A DNA stretch of 64,000 nt from Candidatus Micrarchaeota archaeon (GTDB lineage Archaea > Micrarchaeota > Micrarchaeia > Anstonellales > Anstonellaceae), in assembly GCA_026413805.1 (NCBI GenBank), contig JAOAKE010000001.1:30199-94198 (forward strand). Reading direction: 5' to 3'. This document shows positions 1,177-33,457 of this stretch, piece by piece; the first letter of the stretch is position 1, and every line of letters begins with the position of its first letter. The notes below the pieces were generated by a model, which saw nothing but the letters and a program-made list of their open reading frames with translations, was not told the DNA's origin and ran no database searches. Made by a program: the position numbers and the translations under genes.

Positions 1177-4100
1177 CTATGTGCTGCCTGCTTTTGGAAT
1201 TGGCTTTTTTGGGGGCTTTTTTTCTTGCCTGGGCTTTCGGATGAAGTAGTAAGCTGCTGCTGCAATAAATAGGATTGAAATGACTCCAAGGATTATAGAT
1301 GTGTCTTGCCCGCTTCCCTTTTTGGAGAGAAAGGCGCTTGAGGCGCCAATTGCCCGCTCTGATGCCAAGATGGAGTCTGCAAGAAGGGAAAGTGAGAGGT
1401 ATTCCTCTGCGCGCTTGACTTCTGCCTCAATTTGGGAAACTTCCTTTTCCTCTCCAGGAGATGCCTTTCTTTTTACTTCTGCAAGGGCTGCCTTTGCAAC
1501 CGAAAGCGAGGAGTGGGCAGAAGAGTTGAGGTTTTCAAGGGACTTTCTGACAAGCTCGCTTACAGAGACGAGTTTTTGGTAAGAGCTGTTTGCCTGCCTC
1601 AGCCCTGCAATTGAAGGCTTTTGCTTTTTTGCAGCTGCAAGGCCCTTTTCTGCATCGTCAATCCTTTGCTGTGCCGCAGAAGGTGAAATTGGAAGCTGCC
1701 TCTTTCCTTGCGCTGAAAGCGAGGCATATTGGGCAGAATACTTCAAGAGCAGCTGGTCGGTTTCCTGGCCCAGCCTTGAAAATTCAGCATCTATCCTTTC
1801 AAGCTCTGCGGCTGCCTGTGCCTCTGCTTCTTTCCCTCCTTCAAAGAAAGAAGAAAGAATCTGCTCTGCTTGAGAGGATGCTGAGAGGGCGCCAAGGTAA
1901 TTGCCAGCTGCAAAAAGGGAGTTTGCCTCGGATATTTTCTGCGCTGCCTCTGAAAGAACGCCTGCCTCTGCCCCCTCTTTTCTTGCCTTGGCATAGGCGG
2001 CTGAGGAATCCGAGGCTGCCTTCCAGGAGAGTGACGAGAGGGCTTCGCGAAACTCTGACTGGGCGCGGCGAAGCTGGCTGGCTGCCTTGGAAAGGCTTCC
2101 CTCGCTTGCCGCTTGCTGTGCCTCAACAATTGAGCTGTTGAGCTTGAGGATGAGGGAGGAGAGCTTCAAGGCACGCTCTGAAGCCCCATAGGCAGAAATC
2201 TTAGATTGGGTGGAAGATGCCTCAAAAAGAAGATAACTGGCTGTGCGGTTTTCTTCTGCAAATGCCTCTTGCTCTGCCTGGAAGGAAAGATAATCTGCTG
2301 AATTTCTGTTGATTTTTGACAAGATAGAAAGTGCTTCGCTTAGGCGGTTTTGCCCAATCAGAAGCTTTGCCTGTGCAAGGAGGCTGGCGTCTTGTGGCTT
2401 CTTGTAAAGCGCAACTTGCAGCTCGGCATTGGCAAGAGATTCGGATACAGCTGACTGCAGGTCTTCAATGGTGTATGAAACAAGAAACTCGGCAGACTGG
2501 TGGCGGCGCATGGGCGAAAAGTAAAATGAGATGGTCGTCTTTGAGGCTCCCTTGTCCAGCCTTAAGCGCTCTGCCCTTGCCCCGCTTATAGATTGGACAG
2601 AGAGTTCGGAAACCGAGGAAAACGGCTCTTCTAAAACCACCTTGGCGTATTCACAGTCAGCACGAAAATCTGAAGCTACTAAGGTATATGATACCCTTCT
2701 TTTCCCAGGCCCTATTTCCAAGTAGGACCTTTCGCTTTCTGAAAGCTTGAATGGAGAGGGCACGACAAATGAGACTTCAACTGAATTTGCGCCCTGCCTG
2801 ACTGAATTTATTTCTCCTGCAAGCACGGTGCCCGTGCCTGCGCCCTCTTTTGGGCTTAATTTTGTTTCCCTTCCTGCGAACCGGGCAGTGCCGCCAGCAA
2901 CACCATCCGGCGCTTTTTCCTCTATAAGCAGCCTTTCAAGGTCTCGGGAAGCAAAAAACTTGATGTTGCGGGTGAGGTAGGCTGAAGAGGAGTATGCTTC
3001 TTTGCACCACTCTTCAACAGAATTTACCTGGGCAGGGGAGTCTGACTTGCTAAATGTAAATGAATAGCTCTGCTGTGCTTGGACTTCGGGAAGGACAATG
3101 GTGGTTTTTTCCATTTCAGGATAGGCATCCACTATGCGGTCGCCAAAAGAAAAGTCTGAAGAATGAATTGGAAGGTCGGTTTTTGCCTGGAATGAAACCT
3201 CTGCAGAATAAGAGAGGGTGGAGGGATTTTTAGTCAAGATAGTGGCAAGGTAGTCTGATTTTCCGCCAAGCACTGCTGGGCTGCGCAGTTGTGATACCCA
3301 GGCGTTCTTAGAAAGAATTGCAGAGAGGTATTTGGGCACGCTTTTTTGGGCAACCTCGCTGTAGTAGTCCAGCTGGCTGTCAATCTCCTTTAGCCTTCCT
3401 GCCGCTTTCTTTACAAAGAGGCTGCCGCCCAAAAAATAGCTTGAAAGAGAGTCAAATTCTGGCAAAAAGCCCGGGCTTTCGCTTCGTATATTTTCAACAA
3501 TAGCCTTTGTTTTTTGGTATTTGGCTGGCAGGCCAGAATAAGCCTGGGAGAGCCTCTCAAGAAGGGCTTCTTCATCGTCTTTCAAGGCAGCTATTATGGC
3601 ATCTGCCACCTCTGGAAGCTCTGTTGAAGAAAGAAGCTGCATATATTGGGACAGCTTCCATTCCTCATATGAAACATCAAGCCCGTCTGCTTTTGCATTT
3701 CGCACAAGGCCGCTGAATTCTGAAAGCTGCCTTTGGGCTTCGCTTTTGATTCCAATAAGCCCGCTTTGCTGAAGTGCAGCTGAGGCATGGCTGGCAAGCC
3801 TTGTAGCCTCAGCATAGGCGCTGAATTTTTCACCAAGTGATGGAAGATAGGCTGCCTTGGAGCGCATTTCAATGGCGCGCTGGAGCAGTGAGCTTGAAAG
3901 GTTCTTTGCCTTTGCTTCTTCCATGCTTGAAGGCGTATATGCGGAAATCTTTTGCTGCACCCTTTCTATTGAAGTGTCGGCAAGCTCTTTTTGAAAAGAA
4001 ACCGCTTCCTGCGCATTTTTCAAGACAAGCGCAACTGAGAGAAGGGAGTAGTTGGCTTTTTTCTCAGCAGACTGCGCCTTGGATATGGCGTCTGCAAGAT

Positions 4101-5265
4101 AGCCGGGGGCTGCAGTGTTTGCATATGACGCCTCAGCGCCCCTTAATATTGCCTGGGCCTCCACAAGGCCCTCCCTTGCAGCAAGAAAGCCAGAATATAT
4201 CCCAGATGAAACAGGGGAAACCTCAATTCCTCCTTCCAGATTCCCTGCCTGCGCCGGGCTGTCGGGTATGAGGTGGAGCTTCTCGTCGCTTAGCAGGCTT
4301 ATTTTGGTTTCAAGGGAGGAGAGGGCGGCCTGGGCGGACAGGCGCGCAGATTGATATTCTCCGTTCATCTCCTTTTGTGCCTGCGAAAGGCTGGAATAAA
4401 TCGCAGCAAGCTGCATTATTGAAGATGAGTTTTGCCTGCCTGCAATTTTTTCAAGGTAGGATGAAAATCCGTAGCCTTCAAATGAGGGTAGGTCGGGCCT
4501 TGAAGACGCCCTGCTTGCGATTTTCCTGCCTTGCTGGGCTTGGAGGCAGATGGGCGAGGTGGGCGAAAGCTGTGACTTTGCCTCAAAGAATCGCCGCTGC
4601 GCCTTGCCAGTGTAATGGGGCTCGCCAGCGCCTGCGTCGGAGAGCCATTTCATTTTTTCATCTACCTTGTCTGCAAGGGCAAGGAGAGCCTCATTTGCCC
4701 TATCAAATGTGTCAAATGAGTTGGAATATGCCGACCAGAGGCTTTCATGGTAGGATAAGATGTAATTTGCTACCTCATATATGTTGAGAATCTCTGATAA
4801 TGCAGATGCCATTATTTTTGGAGTTGGTTCAAGAAGAGGCGCAGTAATTACCAGATAAGCAGGGCCTTTTTCTTGCAGCTCTTTGATTGAATTTTTTGCC
4901 TTTACTGATGAGACATGGGCTTTTAGGGAGGCATTCTTTGCCATCAAGAGCGATTCAGAGGCTTCCTTTAGCCTCTCAGAAGAGGCTAAAAGCTCGCTTC
5001 TTGCTTCAGGCGCCAGCATCCAGTTAAAGTAGTCTTTGTCTGCAAGGGTGAGCTGGGTTATTCCAAGCGACTGGGAAGCGTTGTCAAACTCAAATGAGTA
5101 AAAAGTCAGCCCCCAGAATTTGGCTATGAACGGGTTGCCTTGGACGTAATTGGGCTCGTTCCAAAAGCGAACAAGTGGCTCTACTTGTACGCAACTGCTT
5201 GCATATGAGGAGAAGGCAGGCTGAAGAAAAAGTAAAAATAGAAAGAGCGCCTCCCCACGCCTCAT
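1177..5265 (-). CDS. giant (1362 aa) secreted alpha-helical/coiled-coil surface protein with N-terminal signal peptide and C-terminal TM anchor plus basic tail; S-layer/stalk (tetrabrachion-like) candidate
   Basis: Long uninterrupted ORF; N-term MRRGEALFLFLLFLQPAFSSYASS signal; Ala/Ser/Leu/Glu/Gln-rich heptad-like sequence throughout; many N-x-S/T sequons; C-terminal hydrophobic segment ILGVISILFIAAAAYYFI followed by RKPRQEKKPPKKPIPK. Confidence 0.6.
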   Translation of the reverse strand: MRRGEALFLFLLFLQPAFSSYASSCVQVEPLVRFWNEPNYVQGNPFIAKFWGLTFYSFEFDNASQSLGITQLTLADKDYFNWMLAPEARSELLASSERLKEASESLLMAKNASLKAHVSSVKAKNSIKELQEKGPAYLVITAPLLEPTPKIMASALSEILNIYEVANYILSYHESLWSAYSNSFDTFDRANEALLALADKVDEKMKWLSDAGAGEPHYTGKAQRRFFEAKSQLSPTSPICLQAQQGRKIASRASSRPDLPSFEGYGFSSYLEKIAGRQNSSSIMQLAAIYSSLSQAQKEMNGEYQSARLSAQAALSSLETKISLLSDEKLHLIPDSPAQAGNLEGGIEVSPVSSGIYSGFLAAREGLVEAQAILRGAEASYANTAAPGYLADAISKAQSAEKKANYSLLSVALVLKNAQEAVSFQKELADTSIERVQQKISAYTPSSMEEAKAKNLSSSLLQRAIEMRSKAAYLPSLGEKFSAYAEATRLASHASAALQQSGLIGIKSEAQRQLSEFSGLVRNAKADGLDVSYEEWKLSQYMQLLSSTELPEVADAIIAALKDDEEALLERLSQAYSGLPAKYQKTKAIVENIRSESPGFLPEFDSLSSYFLGGSLFVKKAAGRLKEIDSQLDYYSEVAQKSVPKYLSAILSKNAWVSQLRSPAVLGGKSDYLATILTKNPSTLSYSAEVSFQAKTDLPIHSSDFSFGDRIVDAYPEMEKTTIVLPEVQAQQSYSFTFSKSDSPAQVNSVEEWCKEAYSSSAYLTRNIKFFASRDLERLLIEEKAPDGVAGGTARFAGRETKLSPKEGAGTGTVLAGEINSVRQGANSVEVSFVVPSPFKLSESERSYLEIGPGKRRVSYTLVASDFRADCEYAKVVLEEPFSSVSELSVQSISGARAERLRLDKGASKTTISFYFSPMRRHQSAEFLVSYTIEDLQSAVSESLANAELQVALYKKPQDASLLAQAKLLIGQNRLSEALSILSKINRNSADYLSFQAEQEAFAEENRTASYLLFEASSTQSKISAYGASERALKLSSLILKLNSSIVEAQQAASEGSLSKAASQLRRAQSEFREALSSLSWKAASDSSAAYAKARKEGAEAGVLSEAAQKISEANSLFAAGNYLGALSASSQAEQILSSFFEGGKEAEAQAAAELERIDAEFSRLGQETDQLLLKYSAQYASLSAQGKRQLPISPSAAQQRIDDAEKGLAAAKKQKPSIAGLRQANSSYQKLVSVSELVRKSLENLNSSAHSSLSVAKAALAEVKRKASPGEEKEVSQIEAEVKRAEEYLSLSLLADSILASERAIGASSAFLSKKGSGQDTSIILGVISILFIAAAAYYFIRKPRQEKKPPKKPIPKAGST

Positions 5266-14651: not shown

Positions 14652-15782
14652 CTATATCGTTTCCAAAAAATAGTCATGTATCTTGACAACATCCAGCTCC
14701 TCGCAGCGAGCGTTGCATGACAGGGCCTGCGCTATTGAGGGCTTTGTCCTGCCATTGTCCGAGGTTATGAATTCCTTGATGTATGCCCCTGCCTCTGCAA
14801 ATATGTGCAGCCTTAGTTTTCCGTCCTTTTCACATTGGGCTGAAACCGAAAATATCCTCCTTCTTCGCTCCAAGTCTGCCCTTCTTCCAAGGACTCGGTT
14901 AGGCGTCTGTTGGAAGAGAACTGCCCCTGAAAGCGAGCTTGCCTTTTCTGCGTCTTTTTGCCCGAGCGGGCGGTCAGCAGAAACCAATGCCGAGTATTCT
15001 TTGTCAAAATGAGAGTTGCAGACTGCATCAACAAAATGTGGGCCGACAATGCGCAGGCCAACTGCCCTTACGCTTCCCTTCTTTTCAATTGCCTTTTCAA
15101 GCTCAAGCAAGTCTGCCTTTCTCTTCTTTGGCTTTTTCAGCTCTAAAACAAACGGCCTTCCGCTGCCAAGCGCCCTTACATCCACGTCTTCCCGGCCGCT
15201 TGCATGCAGTATTGCATCTTCTGCCAAAAAAAGGCGCCTCGCCTCGCTTCCGATTTCTTCCTCAACAGAAGGGTAAGATTGGCCGCTTCCTGCGCAGCTT
15301 CGGCAGCCCTTTCCGCTGCACTTGGAGCATTGCCAGCGGCTCTGGCAGTGCCTTCGTGAAAGCTTCAGATACCTGCCAAAGACAAATAAAGGGGAAGGAA
15401 TTGCACGGGCGCTGCCCTTCTCAAAGTCAAGCTCAATGGCAAGGTCAGGGAACCTCTGCCTGTTCTGCCTCCCAGCCATCTTTGAAATTAACCCAGCCGC
15501 AGAAGAATTAAGGCTGTTTTTAATGGAGGTGAATTCTCCGGGCGCAAAATAGGTGGCGACCTCTTCCTCGCGAACCAGCACTTGGGGGGGAATGTGAGTT
15601 GAAACTGAAAAGGACTCCCACTCAAGCCCTTCTGAAAGCCCAACTGCCTTTGAGCAGAGCGCCTCAAGCTGCGAAAATATGCCTTGGCATAAGAAGCATC
15701 GGCTGCTTTCCCCTGAGATAGAAATTGCATGGGATTTTGGAAAGCGGCTTGCACACCATGAACAGAGGCAAAAACCTGCCAT
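14652..15782 (-). CDS. pus10: tRNA pseudouridine synthase Pus10
   Basis: N-terminal Zn-ribbon CSWC...CFLCQGIF, catalytic-Asp motif GREDVDVRALG matching Pus10 family. Confidence 0.75.
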   Translation of the reverse strand: MAGFCLCSWCASRFPKSHAISISGESSRCFLCQGIFSQLEALCSKAVGLSEGLEWESFSVSTHIPPQVLVREEEVATYFAPGEFTSIKNSLNSSAAGLISKMAGRQNRQRFPDLAIELDFEKGSARAIPSPLFVFGRYLKLSRRHCQSRWQCSKCSGKGCRSCAGSGQSYPSVEEEIGSEARRLFLAEDAILHASGREDVDVRALGSGRPFVLELKKPKKRKADLLELEKAIEKKGSVRAVGLRIVGPHFVDAVCNSHFDKEYSALVSADRPLGQKDAEKASSLSGAVLFQQTPNRVLGRRADLERRRRIFSVSAQCEKDGKLRLHIFAEAGAYIKEFITSDNGRTKPSIAQALSCNARCEELDVVKIHDYFLETI

Positions 15783-15869
15783 GGTGCAAAGAATTTGAAA
15801 GAGTATTTAAATATTGCATGAAAATTGCTTTTCAAGGCTTGGGGAAAGAGCGAAAGGATTAAAAGGGCG

Positions 15870-15892
15870 TTGGTTAAATAAATAATGGTAAA
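15870..15892 (+). promoter_or_regulatory. candidate TATA/BRE region for the triple-HTH gene (GGTTAAATAAATAATGG)
   Basis: AT-rich TATA-like element ~45 nt upstream of ATG 15931, with GGTGGG RBS at -10. Confidence 0.25.
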
Positions 15893-15930
15893 AAATGTAT
15901 TTTTGGATAAATCCCTGGCAGGTGGGTTAA

Positions 15931-16668
15931 ATGCCGCGTGGAAAGAGAATCGTGATTGAAAAGGTGATTAAAGACCCGGTTATAGCTAGGCTCAAGTCGC
16001 TCAAGCTCTCTGAGCTGAAGAGCAAAAGAGCGTCTGTTGAGAAAGAATTGCACGAGAGCATAGCCAACATAGTGAGCACTGCCAAGGAGCTTTATGCCAA
16101 GGAAAAGCTTGAAAAGGAAAAAAGAAGGGGGCTTGGGTTGCTGACGCTTGAGGAGGCGTATGAAGAGCTGAAGAAAGGCGGCATAGACATCTCGTTCAGG
16201 GCATTCGGCGGGAGGGTGGAAAGGCGCTCCATCTACTCTGAAAAAATCGGGAGCAAGAGGCTCATCCCGCTTCCAGTAATACAAGACTGGATTGCTCTTT
16301 CGAAAGAGTATTATACGGTGAAGCAGGCATATAATGAGCTCAAAAAATATGAGGACATCAACCTAAGGGCATTTATAGGCAGGATTGAAAAAAATTCTAT
16401 TCCTTCTCTTAAAATTGGGACGCAGAGGTGGGTCCCAAAAAGCGCAATTGAGGGCTTGACCCATATTTGCAAAAATTATTACGACGTAGGCGAAGCGGTT
16501 GCTGAAATGACAAAGCGGGGAATCAAGATAAAGAGAAATGCTTTTGAAAGAAGGCTGGACAGGAACAGAATCCCGCATGAGAAAATAGGAGGAAGGCGGG
16601 TAATTGCAAAAGAAGTGCTTGAGGAGCTCATAGAAAAGGAGCTCGCCCTTTCAAAAGCAAAAATATAA
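15931..16668 (+). CDS. DNA-binding protein with three tandem excisionase/MerR-type HTH (HTH_17-like) modules and N-terminal coiled coil
   Basis: Three ~55-aa repeats each with pattern T-x-x-EA-x-x-L...IP-x-x-KIG-x-x-R-[WVI]-x-K (e.g. IPSLKIGTQRWVPKSAIEGL; IPHEKIGGRRVIAKEVLEEL); ATG with GGTGGG RBS. Confidence 0.55.
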   Translation: MPRGKRIVIEKVIKDPVIARLKSLKLSELKSKRASVEKELHESIANIVSTAKELYAKEKLEKEKRRGLGLLTLEEAYEELKKGGIDISFRAFGGRVERRSIYSEKIGSKRLIPLPVIQDWIALSKEYYTVKQAYNELKKYEDINLRAFIGRIEKNSIPSLKIGTQRWVPKSAIEGLTHICKNYYDVGEAVAEMTKRGIKIKRNAFERRLDRNRIPHEKIGGRRVIAKEVLEELIEKELALSKAKI

Positions 16669-16675
16669 TGGGCAG

Positions 16676-18001
16676 TTAGCCCCCTATTTTTTTCAAGTCA
16701 AGCCCAGAGCCTTGGAGCATCTTTTCTATCCGCTTTCGCATCCCTCGGTTCTTTTTAACTTGGTTGAACAGGTTGTTGACCCTTTCAAATTGTGCAAGCA
16801 GCTCTCGTACCTCTGCCTCGGATGTGCCAGAGCCCCTTGCCACCCTCTCTATCCTTGATTTCTGCTTGCGAAAAAGGGAGGCGTCCTCGCGCTCTTGCGG
16901 AGTCATTGAGTTTATTATGCTTTCAAATTTCTTGAGCTTCTCCTCGCTTGTCCTTACCACTTCTTGTGGCATGTCAGCTGCGCCGAGCATTGAAAAAACT
17001 GAGGAGAGCGGGCCGAGCTTTTTTGCCGCCTTAAGCTGCTCATAAAAAACCCTCAAGGTAAGCTTTTCCTCGGCTGTTTCAGGCAGCTTTTCCTCTTCTG
17101 CTATCTTCTTTACTTTTTCAATCAATGTGCCAATGTCTGGAAACCCAAGCAGCCTGCCAACAAACTTTTGCGAGTCAAATGGCTCAAGCGCGTCCATCTT
17201 TTCTCCAGTGCCAATGAATGCCACCTTTGCCTTTGAGGCTGCAACTGCAGAGAGCGCGCCGCCTCCCTTCCCGCTTCCGTCCATCTTCGTTATTATTACT
17301 CCTGAAAGCCCAACTGCCTGGTGGAACTGCTCTGCTTGCTTTCCAGCAATCTGCCCGATGTCTGCTGAAATGACAAGGAACTTTTCGTCTGGGAGAAATT
17401 CTTTGTTGATCTCTTTTAGCTGCTCTACAAGAGGCTCTTCAAATGCGCTCCTGCCAGAAGAATCGCAAATTATTATGTCTTCTTTCCAGCGCCTGCTCGC
17501 CTCTGCGATGATTCTTTTCACGTCCCTTTCCCCTTTTATCCCGTAAAAGGCCGCCCCTGACTGCCGTGCCACCTGCTCTAGCTGCTCATAGGCAGCTGGC
17601 CTGTCAACATCGCAGGAAACCATCGCAACTGAAAGGCCGCGAGATTTGTAAAAGTGGGCAAGCTTGCCTGCGGTTGTGGTCTTGCCGCTTCCATACAGCC
17701 CAAGGAGAAGAATTTTGTGGGGCTTTAGCGAGGGCTCGTATTTTTCGCCCATCAGCAAGGAAAGCTCTTCATAGACCACTTTTACGACATGCTCGCGCAA
17801 CGACAGGCCTTTTGCAAGCTTGGAGTCAAGAGCACGGCTTTCAATCTTTTTTGTCAGTTCAAAGACAAGCTTGACATTCACATCTGAGGAAATCAGGACG
17901 CGCTGGAGCTCGCGGCACAGCGATTTTACTGCCTTTTCATCAGCAATCGGCGCTCCTGTGAATTTTGCCAGTGCTGCCCTAAGGCTCCTTCCCAAGTCCA
18001 T
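16676..18001 (-). CDS. srp54: signal recognition particle protein SRP54
   Basis: GLYGSGKTTTAGKLA Walker A, DSSGR, M-domain Met-rich C-terminus. Confidence 0.9.
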   Translation of the reverse strand: MDLGRSLRAALAKFTGAPIADEKAVKSLCRELQRVLISSDVNVKLVFELTKKIESRALDSKLAKGLSLREHVVKVVYEELSLLMGEKYEPSLKPHKILLLGLYGSGKTTTAGKLAHFYKSRGLSVAMVSCDVDRPAAYEQLEQVARQSGAAFYGIKGERDVKRIIAEASRRWKEDIIICDSSGRSAFEEPLVEQLKEINKEFLPDEKFLVISADIGQIAGKQAEQFHQAVGLSGVIITKMDGSGKGGGALSAVAASKAKVAFIGTGEKMDALEPFDSQKFVGRLLGFPDIGTLIEKVKKIAEEEKLPETAEEKLTLRVFYEQLKAAKKLGPLSSVFSMLGAADMPQEVVRTSEEKLKKFESIINSMTPQEREDASLFRKQKSRIERVARGSGTSEAEVRELLAQFERVNNLFNQVKKNRGMRKRIEKMLQGSGLDLKKIGG

Positions 18002-18165: not shown

Positions 18166-18381
18166 ATGGGACAGAAGATTGGAAATGAAAAAATAAAGCG
18201 CGAAGACGGCTACCTATACTACATCGGAAAGGACGGGTATGTATGGGCAGCCCCAATGAAGCACAACAAGGGCGGCCGAAAGAAAAGAGTAGGCACTGAG
18301 AAGATTGAAAAGCAGGATGGCTACATGTATTACGTCGGAAAGGACGGATATGTGTGGAAGTCCAAGATGAAGAATGCTTGA
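18166..18381 (+). CDS. small (71 aa) basic protein made of two tandem repeats (EKIx[KR]xDGY[LM]YY[IV]GKDGYVW), hypothetical
   Basis: Internal duplication visible in translation; strong RBS GGAGGTG 7 nt upstream of ATG; no Cys/His. Confidence 0.5.
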   Translation: MGQKIGNEKIKREDGYLYYIGKDGYVWAAPMKHNKGGRKKRVGTEKIEKQDGYMYYVGKDGYVWKSKMKNA

Positions 18382-18522: not shown

Positions 18523-20847
18523 ATGGGATGCAGACCATCTTATCAAGGAGGGCGGCTGGTGATGGATTGCCCAACCTGTGGGCTTGGGCTTACCACCCCG
18601 CAGTGCATCAACTCACACCTCAAGGTAACTTCGCAGCTGACTAAGCCGTGGAGCACCATGAGGTATGAAGAAGAAGTGGTGGTGGACCTTGACGAGGAAA
18701 AAACTGCAATGATAGTTGAATATGATGCGCTTATCCGCCAGGTTGAAAACATCATGCTCAACCCAAAAACATACGGCAGGCCTGAAGACGAAAGATACAC
18801 GCAAAGAAGGAAGCTGCTGAAAGACTTCTACGAATATATGTTCATGAACCCCCTTGTTGCTGCGCAAGTGCTGAAAGACTATAGCGAGCCATACCCTGAA
18901 AAGGCGGTTTTTGTAGAGGGATACCGCAATTTTCAAGCCTGGATAAACGGAATACGCGAAGCCTACGTAAAATCTTCTTTGTACCTTCTGTGCCAAAAAA
19001 CAGGAGACTTGCGCTCTGCATTTCTTGCCCTGATGGGGCTCAAGTCGCTTCTTTTTGTCCAGAATTTCATGCTCTCCCTCCCAAAGGACGCCATCCCCAT
19101 AAGCGCCAGCGCTGGCGGCGAATATGAGCTGGATTATGGGATGAAAGTAAAAATATATGAGCTGCCTGGCGGCGAAGCCCACCTTTACACGATTGAAAAC
19201 CCAGTGATTGAAAACCTGCCAAGGGAGCTGCAAGAAATGATGAAAAACGCCATACAGGAAGGGCTGAGGGAAATCCACCAGGTCTTAGACTACGGCACGG
19301 TCTTTGATGACAGGAGCAGGGAGTATACGCAACAATTTATTGACAAGGCAACGCTTGAAAAAATACCGATTACCCAAGAGCAGGCAATTGCGATGGGAAG
19401 GGAGGCTGCTGCATGGGTGGTTGGGCTTGGCGCCCCGATAGAAAACATTGCGCTGGACCGGGAAAATATCACAGACATCTACATAGACAGTGAGAACACT
19501 CCGATATACATAGAGCATGCAAAGTTTGGGTTGTGCCATACCCTGTGGCGCTACAACCATGAAATGCTGGAAAACATGTTCAAAAACATCATTGCCGCTG
19601 GAAAAGGAAGCAAGCGCTTTGACCATGCCTCGCCCATTGTTGATGTTGTGCTTACGCGGCTGGCGATGAGGTGCCACCTCCAGCGCCCGCCTGCCACCTT
19701 TGGCGAGCTTCAGGCTGCGCTGAGGATAATGAGGGACCGCCCATTTACCTACCCGATGTATATAAACATGCATACTGTAAGCCCGTTCTTTGCAGGCTAC
19801 GACGACGTGATGGTGCAGCTTGGATGCTCTGAGGCAGTGCTTGGGCTGAAAGGCGTTGGGAAAACCGCATTTACTTCGACAAAGATTGCAGCCATTGGCA
19901 CCAAGCGGAGGATATTGCCGATTCAAGACATTGAAGAAATCCCGACCAAGGCATATAGAAAAAGGGGCTTTCACATAGGGGCTGTCCAGGTCCAGTCGTC
20001 TGACAGGGAAGAAATCGGGGGCGGAAGCGAGCTGGACTTGGTTTCCATGACAAATGCCGCCCTGCGCATGGGAGATGCCTGCGTCATAATAAATGAAATT
20101 CGTTCCAGGCTGGCAGTGCAAGGTGTAATAAACTTGCTTAATTCCCAGCCCGGCATATTCCTCCTTTACAACCTGCATGCAAGGTCGCTAAAAGACATAC
20201 AAGACCGGCTGGAGCTGGTTTTCGGCCTGCCAGCTGCCTCAATGTTTTCAACAGACCGCTATTCTTTCCTTTGGAAGGTTCGCTACGGAAGGAAAACGAG
20301 GATATACCGCATGCTCGGGCAGCAATATGAAAGCGATGTAAAGGAGCATAAGTTCGTGGAGGTTTTCAGGTTTGAAAGGGGCAACAGCCCCGAGACTTCT
20401 ACTTTGAAATGCTTCTTTTGCCCAATGCCTGAAGCAGAGGCAAAGTCCCTTTCAAACATAGACTTGGTAAAAACGCAAAAGAACCTCAAGCTCAGCTTTA
20501 TCCCCCCTGCCCTTGAAAGGAGGGCGGCTGACAGCGGCATTGACGCCAAGCAGTATATCATGGAGGCGTTCTTCAAAGGGAAGGTTTATTCGCAAATAGT
20601 TGAGGCTGCTGAAAAATACAAGCAGCCGCTGCTTTTAGAGCTTGACTTTACGCTAAAGTGCACCACCAAGGCGAACAACATCCTGAAAAGCTGCACCAAT
20701 GCCAATGGCGAAGTGGATTGGGCTGCTGTTGAAAGGGAGTGGAAAAAGGGGTTTGCATCGCTTGTTGAAAATGAGATAAGGCAGATGGCAGCTGAAGAAG
20801 AGGAGAGGGCTTCAAAAAAGAAAGAGAAGGGGGCGCAAAAATCATAG
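18523..20847 (+). CDS. divergent type II/IV secretion-system ATPase (FlaI/GspE/VirB11 superfamily) with N-terminal Cys-cluster zinc-ribbon-like segment and ~200-aa C-terminal extension
   Basis: N-domain ITDIYIDSENTPIYIEHAKFG, P-loop GLKGVGKTA, Walker B/Asp box ILPIQDIEEI, His box LYNLHARS, arginine-finger region ALRMGDACVIINEIRS; probable true start ATG 18562 (MDCPTCG...) preceded by GGAGGG. Confidence 0.65.
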   Translation: MGCRPSYQGGRLVMDCPTCGLGLTTPQCINSHLKVTSQLTKPWSTMRYEEEVVVDLDEEKTAMIVEYDALIRQVENIMLNPKTYGRPEDERYTQRRKLLKDFYEYMFMNPLVAAQVLKDYSEPYPEKAVFVEGYRNFQAWINGIREAYVKSSLYLLCQKTGDLRSAFLALMGLKSLLFVQNFMLSLPKDAIPISASAGGEYELDYGMKVKIYELPGGEAHLYTIENPVIENLPRELQEMMKNAIQEGLREIHQVLDYGTVFDDRSREYTQQFIDKATLEKIPITQEQAIAMGREAAAWVVGLGAPIENIALDRENITDIYIDSENTPIYIEHAKFGLCHTLWRYNHEMLENMFKNIIAAGKGSKRFDHASPIVDVVLTRLAMRCHLQRPPATFGELQAALRIMRDRPFTYPMYINMHTVSPFFAGYDDVMVQLGCSEAVLGLKGVGKTAFTSTKIAAIGTKRRILPIQDIEEIPTKAYRKRGFHIGAVQVQSSDREEIGGGSELDLVSMTNAALRMGDACVIINEIRSRLAVQGVINLLNSQPGIFLLYNLHARSLKDIQDRLELVFGLPAASMFSTDRYSFLWKVRYGRKTRIYRMLGQQYESDVKEHKFVEVFRFERGNSPETSTLKCFFCPMPEAEAKSLSNIDLVKTQKNLKLSFIPPALERRAADSGIDAKQYIMEAFFKGKVYSQIVEAAEKYKQPLLLELDFTLKCTTKANNILKSCTNANGEVDWAAVEREWKKGFASLVENEIRQMAAEEEERASKKKEKGAQKS

Positions 20848-22155
20848 CCTCTTTGCAAACTCGCAAATGAATTCTTCCAGCCTTGAATAAGGGATGGTGG
20901 CGCCAGCTGCGATGTTGTGCCCGCCGCCTGCACCGCCTACTGCGCTGCTGCACTCAGAAACTACCTTTCCAAGGTTCAAACCCTCGCTGACAAGCTTCCT
21001 TGTGCCCCTTGTCGAAAGCTTTATGTTTCCGGACTCGTCCAGTGAAAGGGCAAGCACTGGCTTTTTTCTCTGGCCTGGGTAAAGCATGCCTGCGACTATC
21101 CCAATTATTGAGTCTGGGATTACTCCGCGGGCGTCTACCAAGATGAATTTCCCGAAGTCTTGGGCATGGCTGGCGGCAAATTCTATTCCCTCTTTGAGCC
21201 TCTTGCGATGCTCGGCGAGCAGTGCGCTTGCCTGCTGGTAAGCCCCTTCTTTTAGCAGGCAGACCTCCAGCCCTAGGTTGGCTTTGTTGTTTCTTCCACA
21301 GGCATTAAGCAAGGTTGCAAACTCAGATGCATCGCGAAGCTCGGTTCTTTTTGGCTGCTTAAGCAGGGTGAATACCTCGCCTGTCAGCCTTTTTGCAGCC
21401 TCAGGGGAAGCGCGGATTGCAAGAAGCTCGGCAAGCGCAGAAACCAGCCTTTTTTTCTCTTCAACTGCAAGGTCAGAGTATGTGCGCCAGTGCGGGCCTT
21501 CTTTTAGAGGGATTTCAAGGCTTGCAAGGAAATCTATGCATGCTTCTTCTTGGCCGCTGAGCCCTGGAAGGAACGGCTCGTCGGCATACAAAAGAAACTG
21601 CACGAGAGGGCGGCTGTGCCTGCCAAACAAAAGCAGGTCTTTTGAAACTGCCACCTCTCCTCTTTCCACTGCCTCGTCAAGCATTGCCCGGTTTAGGCTG
21701 CAAAATGGCTGCTGGATGTCTCCGACTGCGCCAACGACCCCCAAGTCAGCATGCACTCCGAAAACAAAATAGGCGCAGCCTGCTGCTGAAATCTCACTCC
21801 CCCCATCAAAGCCAAAGTGGTGGGGGTTGGCTTGCAGGTGGGAGGTGGTTGCGGGCTGGTGGTGGTCAATAATTACAACTTCGCCTTTAAGCTCATCTAC
21901 AATGGAAGTGCCACTTCCAAGGTCCGCAAAGATGATTTCTTTTTCACCTTTCAGGGAAGAAATAAGGCTTTGGTCCACCTTCCTTACATCTTTTGCCAAG
22001 TAGCGCTTGCCCTCACTTTCAAGCCAGGATGCAACTATTGCGCCTGCAGCAATGCCATCGCAATCATAGTGATGGATTACCAACGGCTGTGCCATTCTTT
22101 TGGCAGCTTCCCTCGCTTCTGCACAGCGCTCAAGAAATTTTTCGCGGTTTCCCAT
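20842..22155 (-). CDS. DHH-family phosphoesterase (archaeal RecJ/GAN-like nuclease)
   Basis: DHH motif region IHHYDCDGIAAGAI...IIDHH, DHHA1-like C-terminal GGGH motif (AVGGAGGGHNIAAGA). Confidence 0.7.
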   Translation of the reverse strand: MGNREKFLERCAEAREAAKRMAQPLVIHHYDCDGIAAGAIVASWLESEGKRYLAKDVRKVDQSLISSLKGEKEIIFADLGSGTSIVDELKGEVVIIDHHQPATTSHLQANPHHFGFDGGSEISAAGCAYFVFGVHADLGVVGAVGDIQQPFCSLNRAMLDEAVERGEVAVSKDLLLFGRHSRPLVQFLLYADEPFLPGLSGQEEACIDFLASLEIPLKEGPHWRTYSDLAVEEKKRLVSALAELLAIRASPEAAKRLTGEVFTLLKQPKRTELRDASEFATLLNACGRNNKANLGLEVCLLKEGAYQQASALLAEHRKRLKEGIEFAASHAQDFGKFILVDARGVIPDSIIGIVAGMLYPGQRKKPVLALSLDESGNIKLSTRGTRKLVSEGLNLGKVVSECSSAVGGAGGGHNIAAGATIPYSRLEEFICEFAKRL

Positions 22156-22211
22156 AGCAGCGCCAACTGAATGATGGCTGGCTTGTGCTTATAAATGCCA
22201 AAGATAAAAAA

Positions 22212-22643
22212 ATGGGCATGGAAGTTGAGCGCGCGCCAGATGTTGAAGCGCTGGTTTCGGACATCGTAGGCGTCCTTTTCCAGGAGCACATAAATGAGTT
22301 TAGGATAATCTGCATGCGCTCAAAAAACGCCACTGCCAATGCCTATGCGAGAATTTGGAACCTGCCGAAAATCTGGCAAAAGGCGCTGGATGTCAAGGCA
22401 TTTTACATAATTGAAGTCCTGTCGCAGCACTATGACTTGCTGCCTCGCGAAAAAAAAGAAAAGGTGCTCATCCATGAGCTTTTGCACATCCCCAAGACTT
22501 TTTCAGGGGCCCTTCGGCCGCACAGGGGGAAAGTGAAAATAAATGAGCGCACTGTGGACGAGCTACACAGGATTTATAAGGAAAAAAAGAGGGGCAAAAA
22601 GGACAGCCTAAGCGGGCTTGAAATTGCTGAAGAGTCATTTTAG
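22212..22643 (+). CDS. small putative zinc metallopeptidase-like protein (HExxH)
   Basis: VLIHELLHIPKTFSGALRPH motif; track start 22185 is GTG, ATG at 22212. Confidence 0.45.
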   Translation: MGMEVERAPDVEALVSDIVGVLFQEHINEFRIICMRSKNATANAYARIWNLPKIWQKALDVKAFYIIEVLSQHYDLLPREKKEKVLIHELLHIPKTFSGALRPHRGKVKINERTVDELHRIYKEKKRGKKDSLSGLEIAEESF

Positions 22644-27488: not shown

Positions 27489-28571
27489 ATGGGCATTGAA
27501 GAAAAGCTCAGGGCTTTGGAAGAGGAGCTTGCGCGCACGCAGAAAAACAAGGCGACAGAGTACCATATTGGGATATTGAAGGCGAAGATAGCTGCGCTAA
27601 AAAGAGAGCTTCTTGCCCCGAAAAAAAGCGGAGTGCGAAGCGGAGGCTTTGACGTAAAAAAGAGCGGGGATGCCACTGTTGTCTTTGTTGGGCTGCCGTC
27701 TGTTGGAAAGTCCACCCTGCTCAACTCCCTCACTCAATCCAAGTCAAAGGTGGCGCCATATGCCTTCACCACCTTGAACTGTGTGCCAGGCGTGATGGAG
27801 TATAAGGGTGCAAAAATACAGCTTTTGGACCTGCCTGGGATAATCATTGGCGCAAGCGAAGGGCGAGGCAGGGGGCGGGAGGTGCTGGCAGTAGCGCGAA
27901 GCGCAGACCTGATACTTATCCTGCTGGATGTTTTCCAGCCGCACATCCTTCAAAAAATAAAAGAGGAGCTTTGGGGCGCCGGCATAAGGCTGGATGAGGA
28001 GCCCCCAAAAATTTACATCACAAAAAGGCTTCGCGGCGGCGTGGAAATAAATTCCACTGTCAAGCTCACTAAGCTGAATGAAAAGATGATAACCGGCGTG
28101 CTTGCGGAGTATGGAATGCACAATGCAGTCGTAGTTTTCAGGCAGGACGCAACTGTTGACCAGCTCATTGATGTGCTTGCAGGCAATCGCAAATACGTTC
28201 CTTCGCTAGTGGCGCTCAATAAGGTAGATATGGTAAGCGAGGATTACCTGCGCGAAATTCCTTTTGAGTTTTTGCCCATTTCGGCTGAAAAGGGGCAGGG
28301 AATAGACCGCTTAAAGGAAGCCATTTACCAGCGCTTGTCCCTCATCCGCGTCTATACCAAGCCGAGGATGGGCGAGGCTGACCTTGGCGAGCCTCTTATG
28401 TTGAAGGCAGGCTCTACTATAGAAGATGCTTGCAACCGCCTGCACAGGGATTTGGTCAAGGAATTCAAATATGCGGTAGTTTGGGGAAAATCTGCTAAGT
28501 TCCCTGGGCAAAAGGTCGGCTTGCAGCATGTCTTGGAAGACGGCGACATATTCAGCGTGGTAAAAAAGTAA
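27489..28571 (+). CDS. developmentally regulated GTP-binding protein (DRG/Obg-family GTPase with TGS domain)
   Basis: MGIEEKLRALEEELARTQKNKATEYHIGILKAKIA N-terminus, G1 GLPSVGKSTL, TGS-like C-terminus; ORF could also start at ATG 27474. Confidence 0.85.
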   Translation: MGIEEKLRALEEELARTQKNKATEYHIGILKAKIAALKRELLAPKKSGVRSGGFDVKKSGDATVVFVGLPSVGKSTLLNSLTQSKSKVAPYAFTTLNCVPGVMEYKGAKIQLLDLPGIIIGASEGRGRGREVLAVARSADLILILLDVFQPHILQKIKEELWGAGIRLDEEPPKIYITKRLRGGVEINSTVKLTKLNEKMITGVLAEYGMHNAVVVFRQDATVDQLIDVLAGNRKYVPSLVALNKVDMVSEDYLREIPFEFLPISAEKGQGIDRLKEAIYQRLSLIRVYTKPRMGEADLGEPLMLKAGSTIEDACNRLHRDLVKEFKYAVVWGKSAKFPGQKVGLQHVLEDGDIFSVVKK

Positions 28572-28576
28572 GGCGC

Positions 28577-28864
28577 TCATTTCTTTTGAAGCTTCTTGAC
28601 CCAGAAAGGAAGCGGGCTTTTGGTGGTAAAGTCAATGATTTTTATCTCGTCTTTTTTTTGCTTGGCGAATACGATAGGCTTTCCGTCTATGCCGCTCAAG
28701 GTAAATGTGGTTTGCCCATCTTCATTTATGCCGATGGTCATTCGCTGCTTCTTTCCATGCAGCTCAAACTCAAAGCTGTAATTTTCGCCATCTGCAGTAA
28801 TCCTTATTTCATTTATTTTGTCCCATGGGATTTCGCTTGGGGAGGGAAACTTTTCTGAGCCCAT
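28577..28864 (-). CDS. hypothetical small protein (95 aa)
   Basis: ATG-initiated ORF in otherwise empty interval; no recognisable motif. Confidence 0.4.
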   Translation of the reverse strand: MGSEKFPSPSEIPWDKINEIRITADGENYSFEFELHGKKQRMTIGINEDGQTTFTLSGIDGKPIVFAKQKKDEIKIIDFTTKSPLPFWVKKLQKK

Positions 28865-29030
28865 CTAACCACTAATGCATAAGTAATTGTTGTGGTGTCT
28901 TCTTCTCCTCTTTTTCTGGAAGCGTATTGTGAAACATCTTATAAGTTAAATAAAGATTTTCGAGCACCTCTTTGAAATGTGGGTTTTGAGGAGTAATTAT
29001 TTTGACTTCTGGGTTTGCCATAAAACCACT

Positions 29031-29477
29031 TCACATGATTTTTTCATATGTTATTTCACTCTCCCTTTCTTGCCCTTTTGGAAGGGAGATTGTCAGTATC
29101 TCTTTGAGGCGGCTGCCCTTGGTAAGCGATGCCTCAATAAAATCCCCTCCTACACGAAGGGTGAGGAACTCCTTGCCCGCGCTTGTTTCAACCATGATGG
29201 TGTAAACCTCTGCAAGCATCTCATTGTCCTTTGAGATGCCCCGCCCCACCTTTACAGATATATTATGTTGGTCTGGGTTTTTATATATGTCTGCCACCAG
29301 TGTGAGCATCCGGCTTTGCTCATTCTTCAAAACTGCGTTAACCTTTGGGTTTGAGATGAAAAGGCTTTGGAAGATGTCTGCTGCCTCGCTGGTGGTTTTT
29401 CGGCTGAAGTCCACGATTGTTTGGAATACTTTCCACTCCCCTTGTGCGCCTGCGGGCGCCTCGGCTTTCTGCGCCAT
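29031..29477 (-). CDS. hypothetical protein (148 aa)
   Basis: ATG-initiated ORF; no recognisable motif. Confidence 0.4.
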   Translation of the reverse strand: MAQKAEAPAGAQGEWKVFQTIVDFSRKTTSEAADIFQSLFISNPKVNAVLKNEQSRMLTLVADIYKNPDQHNISVKVGRGISKDNEMLAEVYTIMVETSAGKEFLTLRVGGDFIEASLTKGSRLKEILTISLPKGQERESEITYEKIM

Positions 29478-29520
29478 AATGAATCTTCTGCCTGCTTTTA
29501 TTTAAAATAGGGGCCGCGGG

Positions 29521-31554
29521 CTATATCGCCCCTATTTCTTTGCCGGCAATTACTGCTGCCACGAGCAACGAAACAATGTTTAGGACCTTTACCATTGGGT
29601 TTAACGCGGGGCCGGAGGTGTCTTTCAGTGGGTCTCCCACTGTGTCGCCAACCACTGCTGCCTTGTGGGCATCAGAGCCCTTGCCCCCAAATGCCCCAGA
29701 CTCAATGTATTTCTTTGCGTTGTCCCATGCAGCTCCTGCATTCGCCTGGAACACTGCCAATAGTTGGGCAGATACTATGGCGCCTGCAAGAAAACCACCC
29801 AGCGCCTCTAGCCCGAGCCCAAAGCCAATTGCAACCGGCACGGCAACCACCATCACCCCTGGAAGAATGAGAGAGCTTATGGCTGCTTTTGTCGAGATGT
29901 CAACACATGATGCATAATCTGGCTTTTTGATGCCCTTCATTATCTTGTCATCTTTGAATTGGCGGCGAACTTCTTCTACGACAAGGTTTGCTGCCCTTCC
30001 GACTGCGCGCATGGTCATTGAAGAAAATATAAATGGGATGGCTGCGCCAATCAGGAGCCCTATAAAGACCAATGGGGATGCCACGTTGATCTGGCTCAGC
30101 CCGGTGCTTTCAAAGTAGGTTGAAAACAAAGCGACTGCGGCTATTGCAGCTGAGCTTATCGCAAACCCTTTAGTGACTGCTTTTGTAGTATTGCCAACTG
30201 CGTCTAGCTTGTCGAGGCGCTTTCTGCCCGCACTTGCCAAGCCAGACATTTCGCCAATCCCGCTTGCATTGTCAGAGATTGGGCCAAATGTGTCCATCGC
30301 CATTATCAGCGCAGTTGCAGAAAGCATGCCAAGCCCCACCAATGCTATGCCAAAATAGCCCAAGCCTGTGCCAAAAAAGCCAAGCAATATTGCTGCACAG
30401 ACTATTAAGACGCCTGCTACTGCAGACTCCATTCCTAGCGCCAGGCCAGAAATCAGGTTTGTGCCTGCCCCGGACTTTGCAGACTCTGCTGTCTCCCGGA
30501 CTGGTTTTTGCTTGGTGGAGGTGTAGTAGTCTGTAAGGTAGATGATGAGATGGGTGGCAAGCAGCCCGACAACCAAGGCAAATGCATAAGAGAGGCTGCC
30601 AAGCAAGAAATAGGAAACCAAAAGAAAGAAAGCTGCAGAGAGCAACGAGAAGTTTACAAGCCCTCTTTTCATGGCTTCAAATGGGTATTCTGACTCTTTT
30701 TTGAGGCGGGTGGTTTTGCTTGCCAAAAGCCCAATTAAAAGCGCTCCAGCAGCAACAATTAGTGGAAAGATGGCCCCTGCCAGCCCAAGAAGCACTGCGC
30801 CAAGGACCACGGCGGCAATCAGCGCAACGCTGTAGGACTCAAAGACATCTGCGCCCATCCCTGCGCAGTCCCCGACGTTGTCTCCTACATTGTCCGCAAT
30901 TGTTGCAGGGTTTCGTGGGTCATCTTCAGGGATTCCCTTTTCTACTTTGCCAACCAAATCTGCGCCCACGTCAGCCGCTTTTGTATAAATGCCCCCGCCA
31001 ACACGCATGAACAGCGCCAATACGTTTGCACCAAAGCCAAAGCCGATCAGTGCCCGCGCCGCTTCGCTTAAGGCGTGCCCCTCACCCCCAAAGTAGAGCA
31101 GCACGCCTATAAAAACTGCAGCCACGCCAAGAAGGCCTAGCCCTGCCACCAAAGCGCCATTGACTGTGCCTGCCTGAAAGGGAATTGAAAACGCCTCTTG
31201 CATGCTCGAAAGAGACGCCCTGGCAGTCCTTGCATTGGTATTTACTGCCAACAACATGCCAAAATATCCTGCCAACCCAGAACAGGCTGCCCCTACAAGA
31301 AAGGCAGCTGCAACTGCAGGACCAAGGACAAAGTATATTATTGCAAGCAAGACAAATGAAAAGCTGATTATTGTGATGAATTGCCTTTTGAGGTAGGCTG
31401 CTGCGCCTTCTTTAATGGCTTGGGAGATTTCCTTCATCCTTTCACTGCCTTCATCTTTTTTGAAAACCTCCAAGGCAAGCTTGAGCCCATATGCTAAGCC
31501 TGCAATGGCAGCAATAATTGAAAGGTATCCCCACTCTAAAGAAGCCAGTGACAT
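29521..31554 (-). CDS. hppA: membrane-bound proton/sodium-translocating pyrophosphatase (H+-PPase)
   Basis: GDNVGDCAGMGADVFESY and GDTVGDPLKDTSGP signatures; ~16 TM helices; start moved to ATG 31554 preceded by GGGAGGTGG, removing overlap with PIN gene. Confidence 0.9.
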   Translation of the reverse strand: MSLASLEWGYLSIIAAIAGLAYGLKLALEVFKKDEGSERMKEISQAIKEGAAAYLKRQFITIISFSFVLLAIIYFVLGPAVAAAFLVGAACSGLAGYFGMLLAVNTNARTARASLSSMQEAFSIPFQAGTVNGALVAGLGLLGVAAVFIGVLLYFGGEGHALSEAARALIGFGFGANVLALFMRVGGGIYTKAADVGADLVGKVEKGIPEDDPRNPATIADNVGDNVGDCAGMGADVFESYSVALIAAVVLGAVLLGLAGAIFPLIVAAGALLIGLLASKTTRLKKESEYPFEAMKRGLVNFSLLSAAFFLLVSYFLLGSLSYAFALVVGLLATHLIIYLTDYYTSTKQKPVRETAESAKSGAGTNLISGLALGMESAVAGVLIVCAAILLGFFGTGLGYFGIALVGLGMLSATALIMAMDTFGPISDNASGIGEMSGLASAGRKRLDKLDAVGNTTKAVTKGFAISSAAIAAVALFSTYFESTGLSQINVASPLVFIGLLIGAAIPFIFSSMTMRAVGRAANLVVEEVRRQFKDDKIMKGIKKPDYASCVDISTKAAISSLILPGVMVVAVPVAIGFGLGLEALGGFLAGAIVSAQLLAVFQANAGAAWDNAKKYIESGAFGGKGSDAHKAAVVGDTVGDPLKDTSGPALNPMVKVLNIVSLLVAAVIAGKEIGAI

Positions 31555-31577
31555 CTTCTTCCACCTCCCAAAAGAAC

Positions 31578-31967
31578 TTACACAATGCCTATTTTGCATT
31601 TGTGCTTTAGCACTACGACTCCGATCCTTGCGCTGGCTAACTTTTTCCTAAGCGCCCTGTCGTTTGTCGCGACCAACGTCTTGTTTTTGGTGGCAAATTT
31701 AAAAATCCACTTGTCAACCTCGCCAGAACTTTTCAGTATTTTGGTTGGGATTTTCAAAGAAAGGGTTTGAATGGCGCCAAGAGCGAAACGCGCGGCGCTT
31801 GCCCGCCTACCCCCCTTACAAGAGAGGGCTTCCAGCTCCTCAACTGCTCCTGAGGGGATGATTATCTGGACTGGCCCGTCTGCAATGTGCAGCAAGCCTT
31901 CAATCAAATCCACTTTTTGTTCGTATTGAGAAAGCAAGAAATTGGTATCTAAGACTACTTTTTTCAT
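31578..31967 (-). CDS. PIN-domain protein (Fcf1/VapC-like nuclease fold)
   Basis: MKKVVLDTNFLL... with conserved acidic residues (D, E, D) of PIN fold; ATG 31967 confirmed. Confidence 0.6.
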   Translation of the reverse strand: MKKVVLDTNFLLSQYEQKVDLIEGLLHIADGPVQIIIPSGAVEELEALSCKGGRRASAARFALGAIQTLSLKIPTKILKSSGEVDKWIFKFATKNKTLVATNDRALRKKLASARIGVVVLKHKCKIGIV

Positions 31968-32017
31968 GAGTAAAAAAGGAGGGCACTGCTTAAAAGAGAT
32001 GGGCTTGAAATTGAAGC

Positions 32018-32548: not shown

Positions 32549-32587
32549 AGGAATAAATAGGGTGCGGCTAAAATTAAAGCGGTGAGC

Positions 32588-33154: not shown

Positions 33155-33178
33155 GCCAACCTATTTCTATAAACTGCC

Positions 33179-33253
33179 AGCGGGATAGGGTAGCTTGGAG
33201 TGCCCGCTGGGCTCATAACCCAGAGATCAGTGGTTCAAATCCACTTCCCGCTA
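33179..33253 (+). tRNA. initiator tRNA-Met (anticodon CAU)
   Basis: Hand-folded cloverleaf: acceptor AGCGGGA/UCCCGCU with A1:U72, D-stem GGGU/GCCC, anticodon stem CUGGG/CCCAG with three G:C pairs next to loop CUCAUAA, T-arm AGUGG-UUCAAAU-CCACU, discriminator A; CCA not encoded. Confidence 0.8.
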
Positions 33254-33457
33254 TTTTGAGGTTGATCGCTGCGCCTTTTTGGTTCTTTCCCACCCCGGGC
33301 TTCCACTATTTAAGTGTATGTTCTTTTGTTTTGATTTTATTATGTAACTATGGTTACTATAAATAAGAAAAAACAACCAATATAAGAAAAAAATCAAATA
33401 AAAAACGAGATAATTAAAATAAAGAAAAGATAAAAATTAATGGAAGTGTGGGGATAC

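Follow-up and report, generated by a model that had tools for sequence, protein, structure and literature searches.

What a protein assembled from three tandem copies of one winged-helix module does in a micrarchaeal cell is the question raised by a 64,000-nucleotide stretch of the Candidatus Micrarchaeota assembly GCA_026413805.1 (contig JAOAKE010000001.1, positions 30,199–94,198 of the forward strand; hereafter the window, to whose first letter all positions refer). The gene concerned, here called the triple winged-helix gene, is an ATG-to-stop open reading frame (ORF) at 15931–16668 (+) in the ORF list, and its 245-aa product (28.2 kDa; isoelectric point (pI), 9.9) is identical in sequence to N3G22_00290 of Candidatus Micrarchaeota (P0001 in the homologue search). 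A sequence-only reading had proposed a nucleoid-associated or regulatory DNA-binding protein, and this is supported in part, in that the repeats, the fold class, the restriction to one lineage, the slow evolution, the chromosomal setting and a gene-specific promoter element are observed, while DNA binding, the head-to-tail geometry, autoregulation and the role in the cell are suggested rather than seen. With moderate confidence, the product is considered here to be a core DNA-binding protein of the Micrarchaeota lineage in which the triplicated module would act as a head-to-tail array, likely in an architectural or global capacity, and which may repress its own gene. The gene and the parts of its product, with secondary structure taken from an AlphaFold2 model scored by the predicted local distance difference test (pLDDT), are as follows.

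15931–16668, + strand: coding sequence of the triple winged-helix protein, from the ORF list; stop codon at 16666–16668
15931–15975, + strand: basic N-terminal tail, residues 1–15 (MPRGKRIVIEKVIKD); pLDDT 63, no regular secondary structure
15976–16134, + strand: predicted helical N-terminal region, residues 16–68, with a long helix at 26–56 (AlphaFold2)
16135–16302, + strand: predicted winged-helix module 1, residues 69–124 (SFRAFGGRVERRS ... KIGSKRLIP), from the repeat alignment and the AlphaFold2 order b-a-a-b-b-a
16303–16470, + strand: predicted winged-helix module 2, residues 125–180 (NLRAFIGRIEKNSIPSLKIGTQRWVP), from the repeat and orthologue alignments and AlphaFold2
16471–16665, + strand: predicted winged-helix module 3 and C-terminal helix, residues 181–245 (KRNAFERRLDRNRIPHEKIGGRRVI); HTH_17 match of 21.7 bits

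The three consecutive repeats first recognized in the translation are confirmed. Each spans ~56 aa (residues ~69–124, 125–180, and 181–237), the three share 42–45% identity and the pattern A..E..K....I...AF..R.....I...KIG..R is invariant across them, with local BLOSUM62 scores of 81–105 between repeats against 22–24 ± 4.5 for shuffled repeats (z = 12.7–20). The HTH_17-like signature ascribed to the repeats is real, with matches at the family level, though the window protein itself remains narrowly below the curated thresholds: PF12728 (HTH_17) scores 17.2 bits over the full chain and 21.7 bits when repeat 3 is taken by itself (E = 2.5e-4; cut-off, 27), and the best NCBIfam match, TIGR01764 (‘excisionase family DNA-binding protein’), gives 27.4 bits (E = 3e-6; cut-off, 28.8), with its best stretch at residues 200–236 and an E-value of 0.021 against module 2 alone. 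Amongst the orthologues, 22 of 26 match HTH_17 at E < 0.01 (best E = 5e-7), a precomputed PF12728 match is present in most members of a more distant clade (clade B; 49–56% identity), and a profile-profile comparison placed two consecutive modules, with a probability of 88.5%, in register with two consecutive modules of P0155, in which HTH_17 modules of the classical type stand in tandem. By these sequence comparisons, the HTH_17 assignment appears solid at the level of the family.

The AlphaFold2 model, built on a 26-sequence alignment (mean pLDDT, 89.4; predicted template modelling score, 0.76), places helices at residues 16–23, 26–56, and 62–68 (pLDDT 83–93) after the disordered basic tail, and these are followed by the order strand-helix-helix-strand-strand-helix three times over. 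The prediction for the three-module array is thus three b-a-a-b-b-a winged-helix modules, each with the strand, two helices and beta-hairpin wing that define the Xis/MerR-type fold; non-HTH helical repeats, named beforehand as the outcome that would count against the assignment, were not seen in the model, and HTH_17 is matched at the family level. Xis proteins were among the top structural matches of the model. A Foldseek search of the PDB and of viral models agreed with this fold and returned no structural analogue of the whole chain. At the sequence level, no relative of known structure was found, whether the query was the protein, a profile of the family or a profile of one module, and only chance matches appeared (a chemokine, E ~1.3; ApcE, E 0.87). 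The N-terminus, previously taken for a coiled coil, is confidently predicted as a long amphipathic helix with a rough 3–4 spacing of hydrophobic residues, and a coiled coil is not established.

In the Xis/MerR-type winged-helix fold, helix 2 and the wing are the elements that contact DNA. In the orthologue alignment, five to eight Arg/Lys residues per module are invariant and located in these elements, forming the clusters RAFGGR.ER, RAFIGR.EK, RNAFERRLDR.R.P, and K.G..R. Residues invariant among orthologues include S88, R90, A91, F92, G93, G94, R95, E97, R98, S103, K105, R110, and I112 in module 1, and I200, R202–R211, R213, P215, K218, G220, and R223 in module 3. Together with the pI, this distribution suggests that the protein binds DNA. 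The MerR-like modules of CbpM and DafA have been put to uses other than DNA binding, and the three modules could likewise bind protein or RNA, for example as an adaptor for the signal recognition particle (SRP), ribosome biogenesis or a chaperone. This seems improbable given the nature and position of the invariant residues and the basic character of the protein; moreover, the adjacent SRP54 gene is convergent rather than part of the same transcript and is missing around the gene in clade B, and Rfam models identified neither an SRP RNA nor any other RNA gene nearby. For a role as a substitute for SRP19, the literature gave nothing for or against.

The homologue search returned ~440 clusters at 90% identity, full length at ~240–250 aa and named either ‘hypothetical protein’ or ‘helix-turn-helix domain-containing protein’, and all of the named homologues in this set belong to Candidatus Micrarchaeota, Micrarchaeia, Anstonellales or Bilamarchaeaceae. 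When 1.84 billion representatives were searched exhaustively with an HMMER profile, only 36 clusters at 50% identity were recovered, and only two HTH_17 proteins beyond the family were reached, P0155 and P0156, near the E-value limit (E ~1e-4); as the search stops short of the general HTH_17 proteins, the family is sharply delimited. Species-representative genomes contained 164 relatives, of which 80 loci were listed, one assembly each, and all but one of these carry Micrarchaeota-lineage names or the name ‘archaeon’. The exception, a 5-kb contig in an ‘uncultured Bacteroidetes bacterium’ bin (L019, CAIYVS010000023.1), holds a gene that is 74% identical and preceded by the promoter element described below, and its label is probably a binning error. 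One family member (P0203) has the JGI name ‘ribosomal protein S19E’, which is probably wrong. A homologue in a cultivated Micrarchaeon was not identified, a second homologue search having given only proteins from metagenome-assembled genomes, and universality across the phylum is for this reason not claimed.

Within its lineage, the protein evolves slowly. Identities to the window proteins, locus by locus, are given below for two loci, with PolB denoting the family-B DNA polymerase.

L006: this protein 81%, SRP54 82%, PolB 72%, Pus10 56%, prepilin peptidase 55%
L001: this protein 59%, SRP54 63%, PolB 52%, Pus10 not found, prepilin peptidase 37%

The divergence of the triple winged-helix protein tracks that of SRP54 and is slower than that of the other neighbours, including Pus10 and the prepilin peptidase. 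Orthologous modules share a mean identity of 68–70%, the three modules within one protein 31–42%, and the N-terminal region 46% between orthologues, where an MPRGKR/MGRKK-type start is retained as it is in the divergent family members. Because orthologous modules are far more alike than paralogous ones, the triplication is older than the radiation of the lineage sampled, and constraint has acted on each module separately; a single excisionase/MerR-type module would thus have been triplicated early, with the copies then fixed, each with its own invariant residues. DPANN archaea such as the Micrarchaeota, tiny and symbiotic, have very small genomes, and a gene so widely kept in such genomes, and as slow to change as SRP54, likely has a central role, though its annotations go no further than ‘hypothetical’ or ‘HTH domain-containing’. 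No published description of the family was found in the literature, and what appears to be new, as judged from the sequence comparisons, is an archaeal family with sharp limits, confined to one lineage and slow to evolve, whose members combine three modules in fixed order with a conserved helical region at the N-terminus and whose gene has a promoter element of its own.

How the modules might work together can be gauged from single-module relatives. In Xis, BldC and RdfS, helix 2 enters the major groove and the beta-hairpin wing the adjacent groove, and the modules assemble head-to-tail on successive steps of ~9–11 bp with distortion of the DNA. BldC of Streptomyces occupies ~9 bp per protomer, head-to-tail on direct repeats, with 2:1 complexes on 22 bp and 4:1 complexes on 36 bp (PMC5859096), and RdfS forms filaments, recognizes long, poorly conserved regions by indirect readout and binds its own promoter (PMC11963761). 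While BldC (PDB 6amk) is a bacterial protein with a single 68-residue module that forms non-covalent oligomers of variable number, the 245-aa archaeal protein has three diverged modules in fixed order fused behind an N-terminal helix and, not being a single-module protein, is not BldC-like; the head-to-tail binding to direct repeats that characterizes BldC may have a counterpart at the 10-bp-spaced candidate element at the gene’s own start, which is not universal in the family. It is also not a MerR regulator. In MerR family members (BmrR, TipA, SoxR, CueR) and in RacA, a single module precedes a C-terminal coiled coil and the proteins bind palindromes as symmetric dimers, and MerR proteins carry effector domains, whereas the triple winged-helix protein has an N-terminal helix, three modules and no effector domain.

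Several proteins do carry more than one such module in a single chain. TraN of the Enterococcus plasmid pIP501 (PDB 4p0y/4p0z/4pm3), which belongs to a plasmid-encoded type IV secretion system, has two, and its poor superposition on the model (root-mean-square deviation, ~11 Å; template modelling (TM) scores, 0.21/0.38) indicates that the geometry between modules differs. P0155, P0156 and the phage protein A0A8S5MI40 (188 aa; BFVD; TM scores, 0.44/0.53 over 191 columns) likewise string together three or four modules of this superfamily, head-to-tail; these uncharacterized bacterial and phage proteins differ in having a classical HTH_17 sequence and no N-terminal helix region, and fall outside of the Micrarchaeota family. 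The triplication, which had been called unusual, is therefore unusual and not unique.

By analogy with these systems, the three modules would constitute a covalent, pre-assembled and directional ‘mini-filament’ covering ~27–33 bp on one face of the DNA, with the order and spacing of the specialized modules held by their third helices, and with extra DNA contacts or self-association possibly provided by the basic N-terminal tail and the long amphipathic helix. As a natural fusion of three Xis/BldC-type modules, which normally need cooperative assembly on DNA, the protein could reveal how head-to-tail winged-helix filaments recognize and bend long sites.

A candidate for such a site was found directly upstream of the gene, where three signals were predicted from sequence only.

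15851–15865, + strand: predicted archaeal promoter, with a B recognition element (BRE)-like cgaaagg and a TATA-like ATTAAAAG (together cgaaaggATTAAAAG)
15885–15902, + strand: conserved 18-bp element ATGGTAAAAAATGTATTT, a candidate operator, at the predicted transcription start
15921–15925, + strand: Shine-Dalgarno-like GGTGG, 5 nt before the ATG

The consensus BRE/TATA (cgaaaggcTTATAAAT) occurs at the same place in ~30 orthologous loci, 26–29 bp 5’ of the 18-bp element, and a GGTG Shine-Dalgarno motif is similarly placed in almost all of them. The element itself (consensus A-T-G-G-T-A-A-A-w-n-R-T-G-K-W-T-T-T, ATGGTAAAnnRTGKWTTT) lies 33–64 nt 5’ of the real start codon across loci (for example, at 5952–5969 in L006) and carries the full 2 bits of information at eight positions, exceeding the TATA box. 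It contains two direct half-sites, TGGTA and TGKWT (TGTAT in the window), spaced by 10 bp, a period found independently by Tandem Repeats Finder (TRF), and a third TGK at +20 is weakly conserved. The suggestion that the protein recognizes a tripartite or repeated site accordingly finds a candidate direct repeat at the gene’s own start, with two clear half-sites and a weakly conserved third TGK; as for triple direct repeats elsewhere that might serve as binding sites, TRF found none of note in the window beyond this element. Using a sequence-only covariance model, the element was located in 32 loci, always 5’ of the triple winged-helix gene and nowhere else on either strand of 952 kb, and a regular expression gave 22 matches 5’ of the gene and one elsewhere. 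The sole other match in the window (53776) is the start codon of a PRC-barrel-like ORF. A general initiator or regulon motif was rejected, as both searches place the element only 5’ of this gene.

Other sources of the conservation were considered. A leaderless upstream ORF (MVK...) initiated at the conserved ATGGTA was rejected as its cause: such ORFs have ~5–24 codons, the second and third bases of codon 4 (R-T) are kept although the residue encoded changes (N/C/R/Y/D), GTA does not vary at its synonymous site, and AGG replaces ATG in one locus. Nor does peptide coding explain the conservation, since the T at a third codon position and the G that opens the next codon never change, whereas the encoded residues do. 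No RNA structure was indicated in the 5’ untranslated region at the element (RNAalifold, −0.06 kcal/mol, no covariation), and Rfam had no match there.

If a winged-helix array bound head-to-tail represses its own gene, a direct-repeat operator over the transcription start would be expected, and by binding the element the protein may limit its own synthesis. The same evidence could point to a dedicated, sequence-specific, autoregulated transcription factor with a small regulon, its own promoter being the chief target and a few others perhaps belonging to it; the modules of such a factor would read a composite direct-repeat operator that overlaps the transcription start and thereby block RNA polymerase. 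This is possible and, in our judgement, doubtful. An element with 10-bp spacing at the predicted start that outranks the TATA box and is unique to the gene in 952 kb would suit such a factor, as would module-specific invariant residues facing an asymmetric composite site, and promoter control of this kind is known for RdfS and BldC (PMC11963761, PMC5859096). However, lineage-wide conservation at the level of SRP54 is atypical of a narrow regulator, no second copy of the element was seen close to another gene in these loci, and the clear half-sites number only two. Further, clade-B promoters lack the exact element, with a related ATGTAA...TGTGTA in some (L043, L060, L077), although the presumed contact residues of the protein are invariant there, which argues against the element as an obligatory operator. 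Based on this distribution, either the element is read by another factor or the protein reads DNA with low sequence stringency. The element is a candidate binding site that is immediately testable, and the protein, not very surprising in itself, would be a cheap target for biochemistry.

The surroundings of the gene were compared across 81 non-redundant loci, which fall into two main arrangements, and both of the neighbours noted at the outset are present in the window as they had been described.

14652–15782, − strand: Pus10 (PF21238), divergent from the triple winged-helix gene
16676–18001, − strand: SRP54, convergent with the triple winged-helix gene

In the window clade (at least 60% identity), the order is PolB > (GGACT-like) < prepilin peptidase < Pus10, triple winged-helix gene >, < SRP54, often followed by a 774-aa P-loop protein and a RecJ/Cdc45-like DHH protein. 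In clade B, it is GyrB > GyrA > Ig-like membrane protein > triple winged-helix gene > PolB >, with a Rad50/SbcC-like gene and sometimes NreA close by. The most divergent family members have other surroundings (eRF1, PriL-SerRS, DUF87/AAA). The gene is thus chromosomal and of a housekeeping type. Were its product to serve an integrated mobile element as excisionase or recombination directionality factor, this would account for TIGR01764 being the best NCBIfam match and for the Xis proteins among the top structural matches. The known examples (Pukovnik Xis, 4j2n; GIsul2 Xis, 8c3t; Tn916 Xis, 1y6u; RdfS, 8dgl) consist of a single small module, and their genes lie next to an integrase gene on a mobile element, whereas the triple winged-helix gene is syntenic across the lineage, with the same housekeeping neighbours across genomes down to ~50% identity, and Pfam scans of the neighbours identified no integrase or other mobile-element gene within ~10 kb on either side. 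Chromosomal synteny and the lack of a nearby integrase exclude this role as far as the context can; that the listed loci come from different assemblies and that the protein evolves as slowly as SRP54 leaves it with a very slight probability.

A recurrent partner is PolB, which lies <6 kb from the gene in 47 of the 81 loci, though not always in the same arrangement, of which there are several. In 24 clade-B loci, PolB lies directly 3’ on the same strand and starts after the gene’s stop codon, with a gap of 22–61 nt in 20 of the 24 and ≤197 nt in the rest, and the spacer (e.g., L053 6738–6762, L051, L059) is C/T-rich and without a Shine-Dalgarno motif; judging from these sequences, either one transcript covers both genes or PolB is leaderless, with a promoter located within the 3’ terminal part of the gene before it. 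An accessory role beside PolB in replication or repair, for example in the tethering or loading of the polymerase on DNA, is suggested by this linkage, by the GyrB-GyrA pair upstream and the Rad50-like and NreA genes nearby in clade B, and by the RecJ/Cdc45-like gene 4 kb away in the window. The neighbourhood hints at DNA metabolism and is weighted lightly, because the same block also keeps the unrelated Pus10, prepilin peptidase and SRP54, and an Ig-like membrane protein, such that the linkage may be inherited gene order and not function, and because the most divergent members are located elsewhere. There is also no PIP-box-like motif visible in the protein, and PolD is present in the Micrarchaeota as well, so that an accessory role for PolB is considered unlikely. 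An argument for the link from PolB as the sole replicase fails, as a cultivated Micrarchaeon has PolD. A replication origin near the gene was rejected, as the cumulative GC skew turns not at the gene but at ~28–34 kb, where no Orc1/Cdc6 was found.

A core DNA-binding protein with a head-to-tail array is the reading that remains favoured, and action at many sites, architectural or global, is preferred over that of a dedicated regulator at few sites because of the SRP54-like conservation and the wide retention in very small genomes. Several observations weigh against it. Histones and Alba are present in the Micrarchaeota, which leaves no chromatin gap to fill (and a replacement of histones is ruled out by the same fact); PolB, gyrase and Rad50 are linked to the gene within a block that holds unrelated genes too, a linkage lost in the most divergent members; the exact element is missing from the clade at 49–56% identity though the helix-2 and wing residues are invariant there; and the element has two clear half-sites, not three. 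As regards membership in the nucleoid-associated class, the gene has a consensus BRE/TATA and a strong Shine-Dalgarno motif, neither of which is a measure of abundance. In a bolder form, the protein would be an essential, lineage-defining factor of chromosome architecture, a ‘Xis/BldC filament’ covalently pre-assembled from three specialized modules and bending ~30 bp at many sites, possibly in replication or genome maintenance in view of the PolB, gyrase and Rad50 neighbours, and controlling itself via the element; this is put forward tentatively. If the protein does shape the chromosome, it would represent a new class of archaeal chromatin protein beside histones and Alba, and as a chromatin or replication factor it would be a lineage-specific part of archaeal genome organization and a marker gene for the group.

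Several other features of the window were noted. Near the skew switch (~28000–34000) are genes for TFE-alpha (32582–33154) and an RFC-like AAA protein (37729–38940), and an origin there is not supported as there is no adjacent Orc1/Cdc6; beside a tRNA (33179–33253) lies a non-coding, AT-rich stretch (33280–33450) in which A-rich repeats occur in tandem. A 1,362-aa ORF (1177–5265, −) matched no Pfam family at E ≤ 0.001. Beyond SRP54, a basic 71-aa protein (18166–18381, +) with two ~30-aa repeats (EKIxRxDGYxYYxGKDGYVW) and without a Pfam match shares 79–89% identity across 11 related loci, which is very conserved for a small uncharacterized ORF. The 774-aa protein beyond it (18523–20847, +) has a GxxGVGKT P-loop, lacks a Pfam match and is 73–79% identical in relatives, and the RecJ/Cdc45-like DHH gene (20842–22155, −) follows it in the window and nearly all of those related loci. 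A small ORF (22185–22643, +) located amid housekeeping genes encodes a ‘putative phage metallopeptidase’ domain (PF18894, E = 2e-19).
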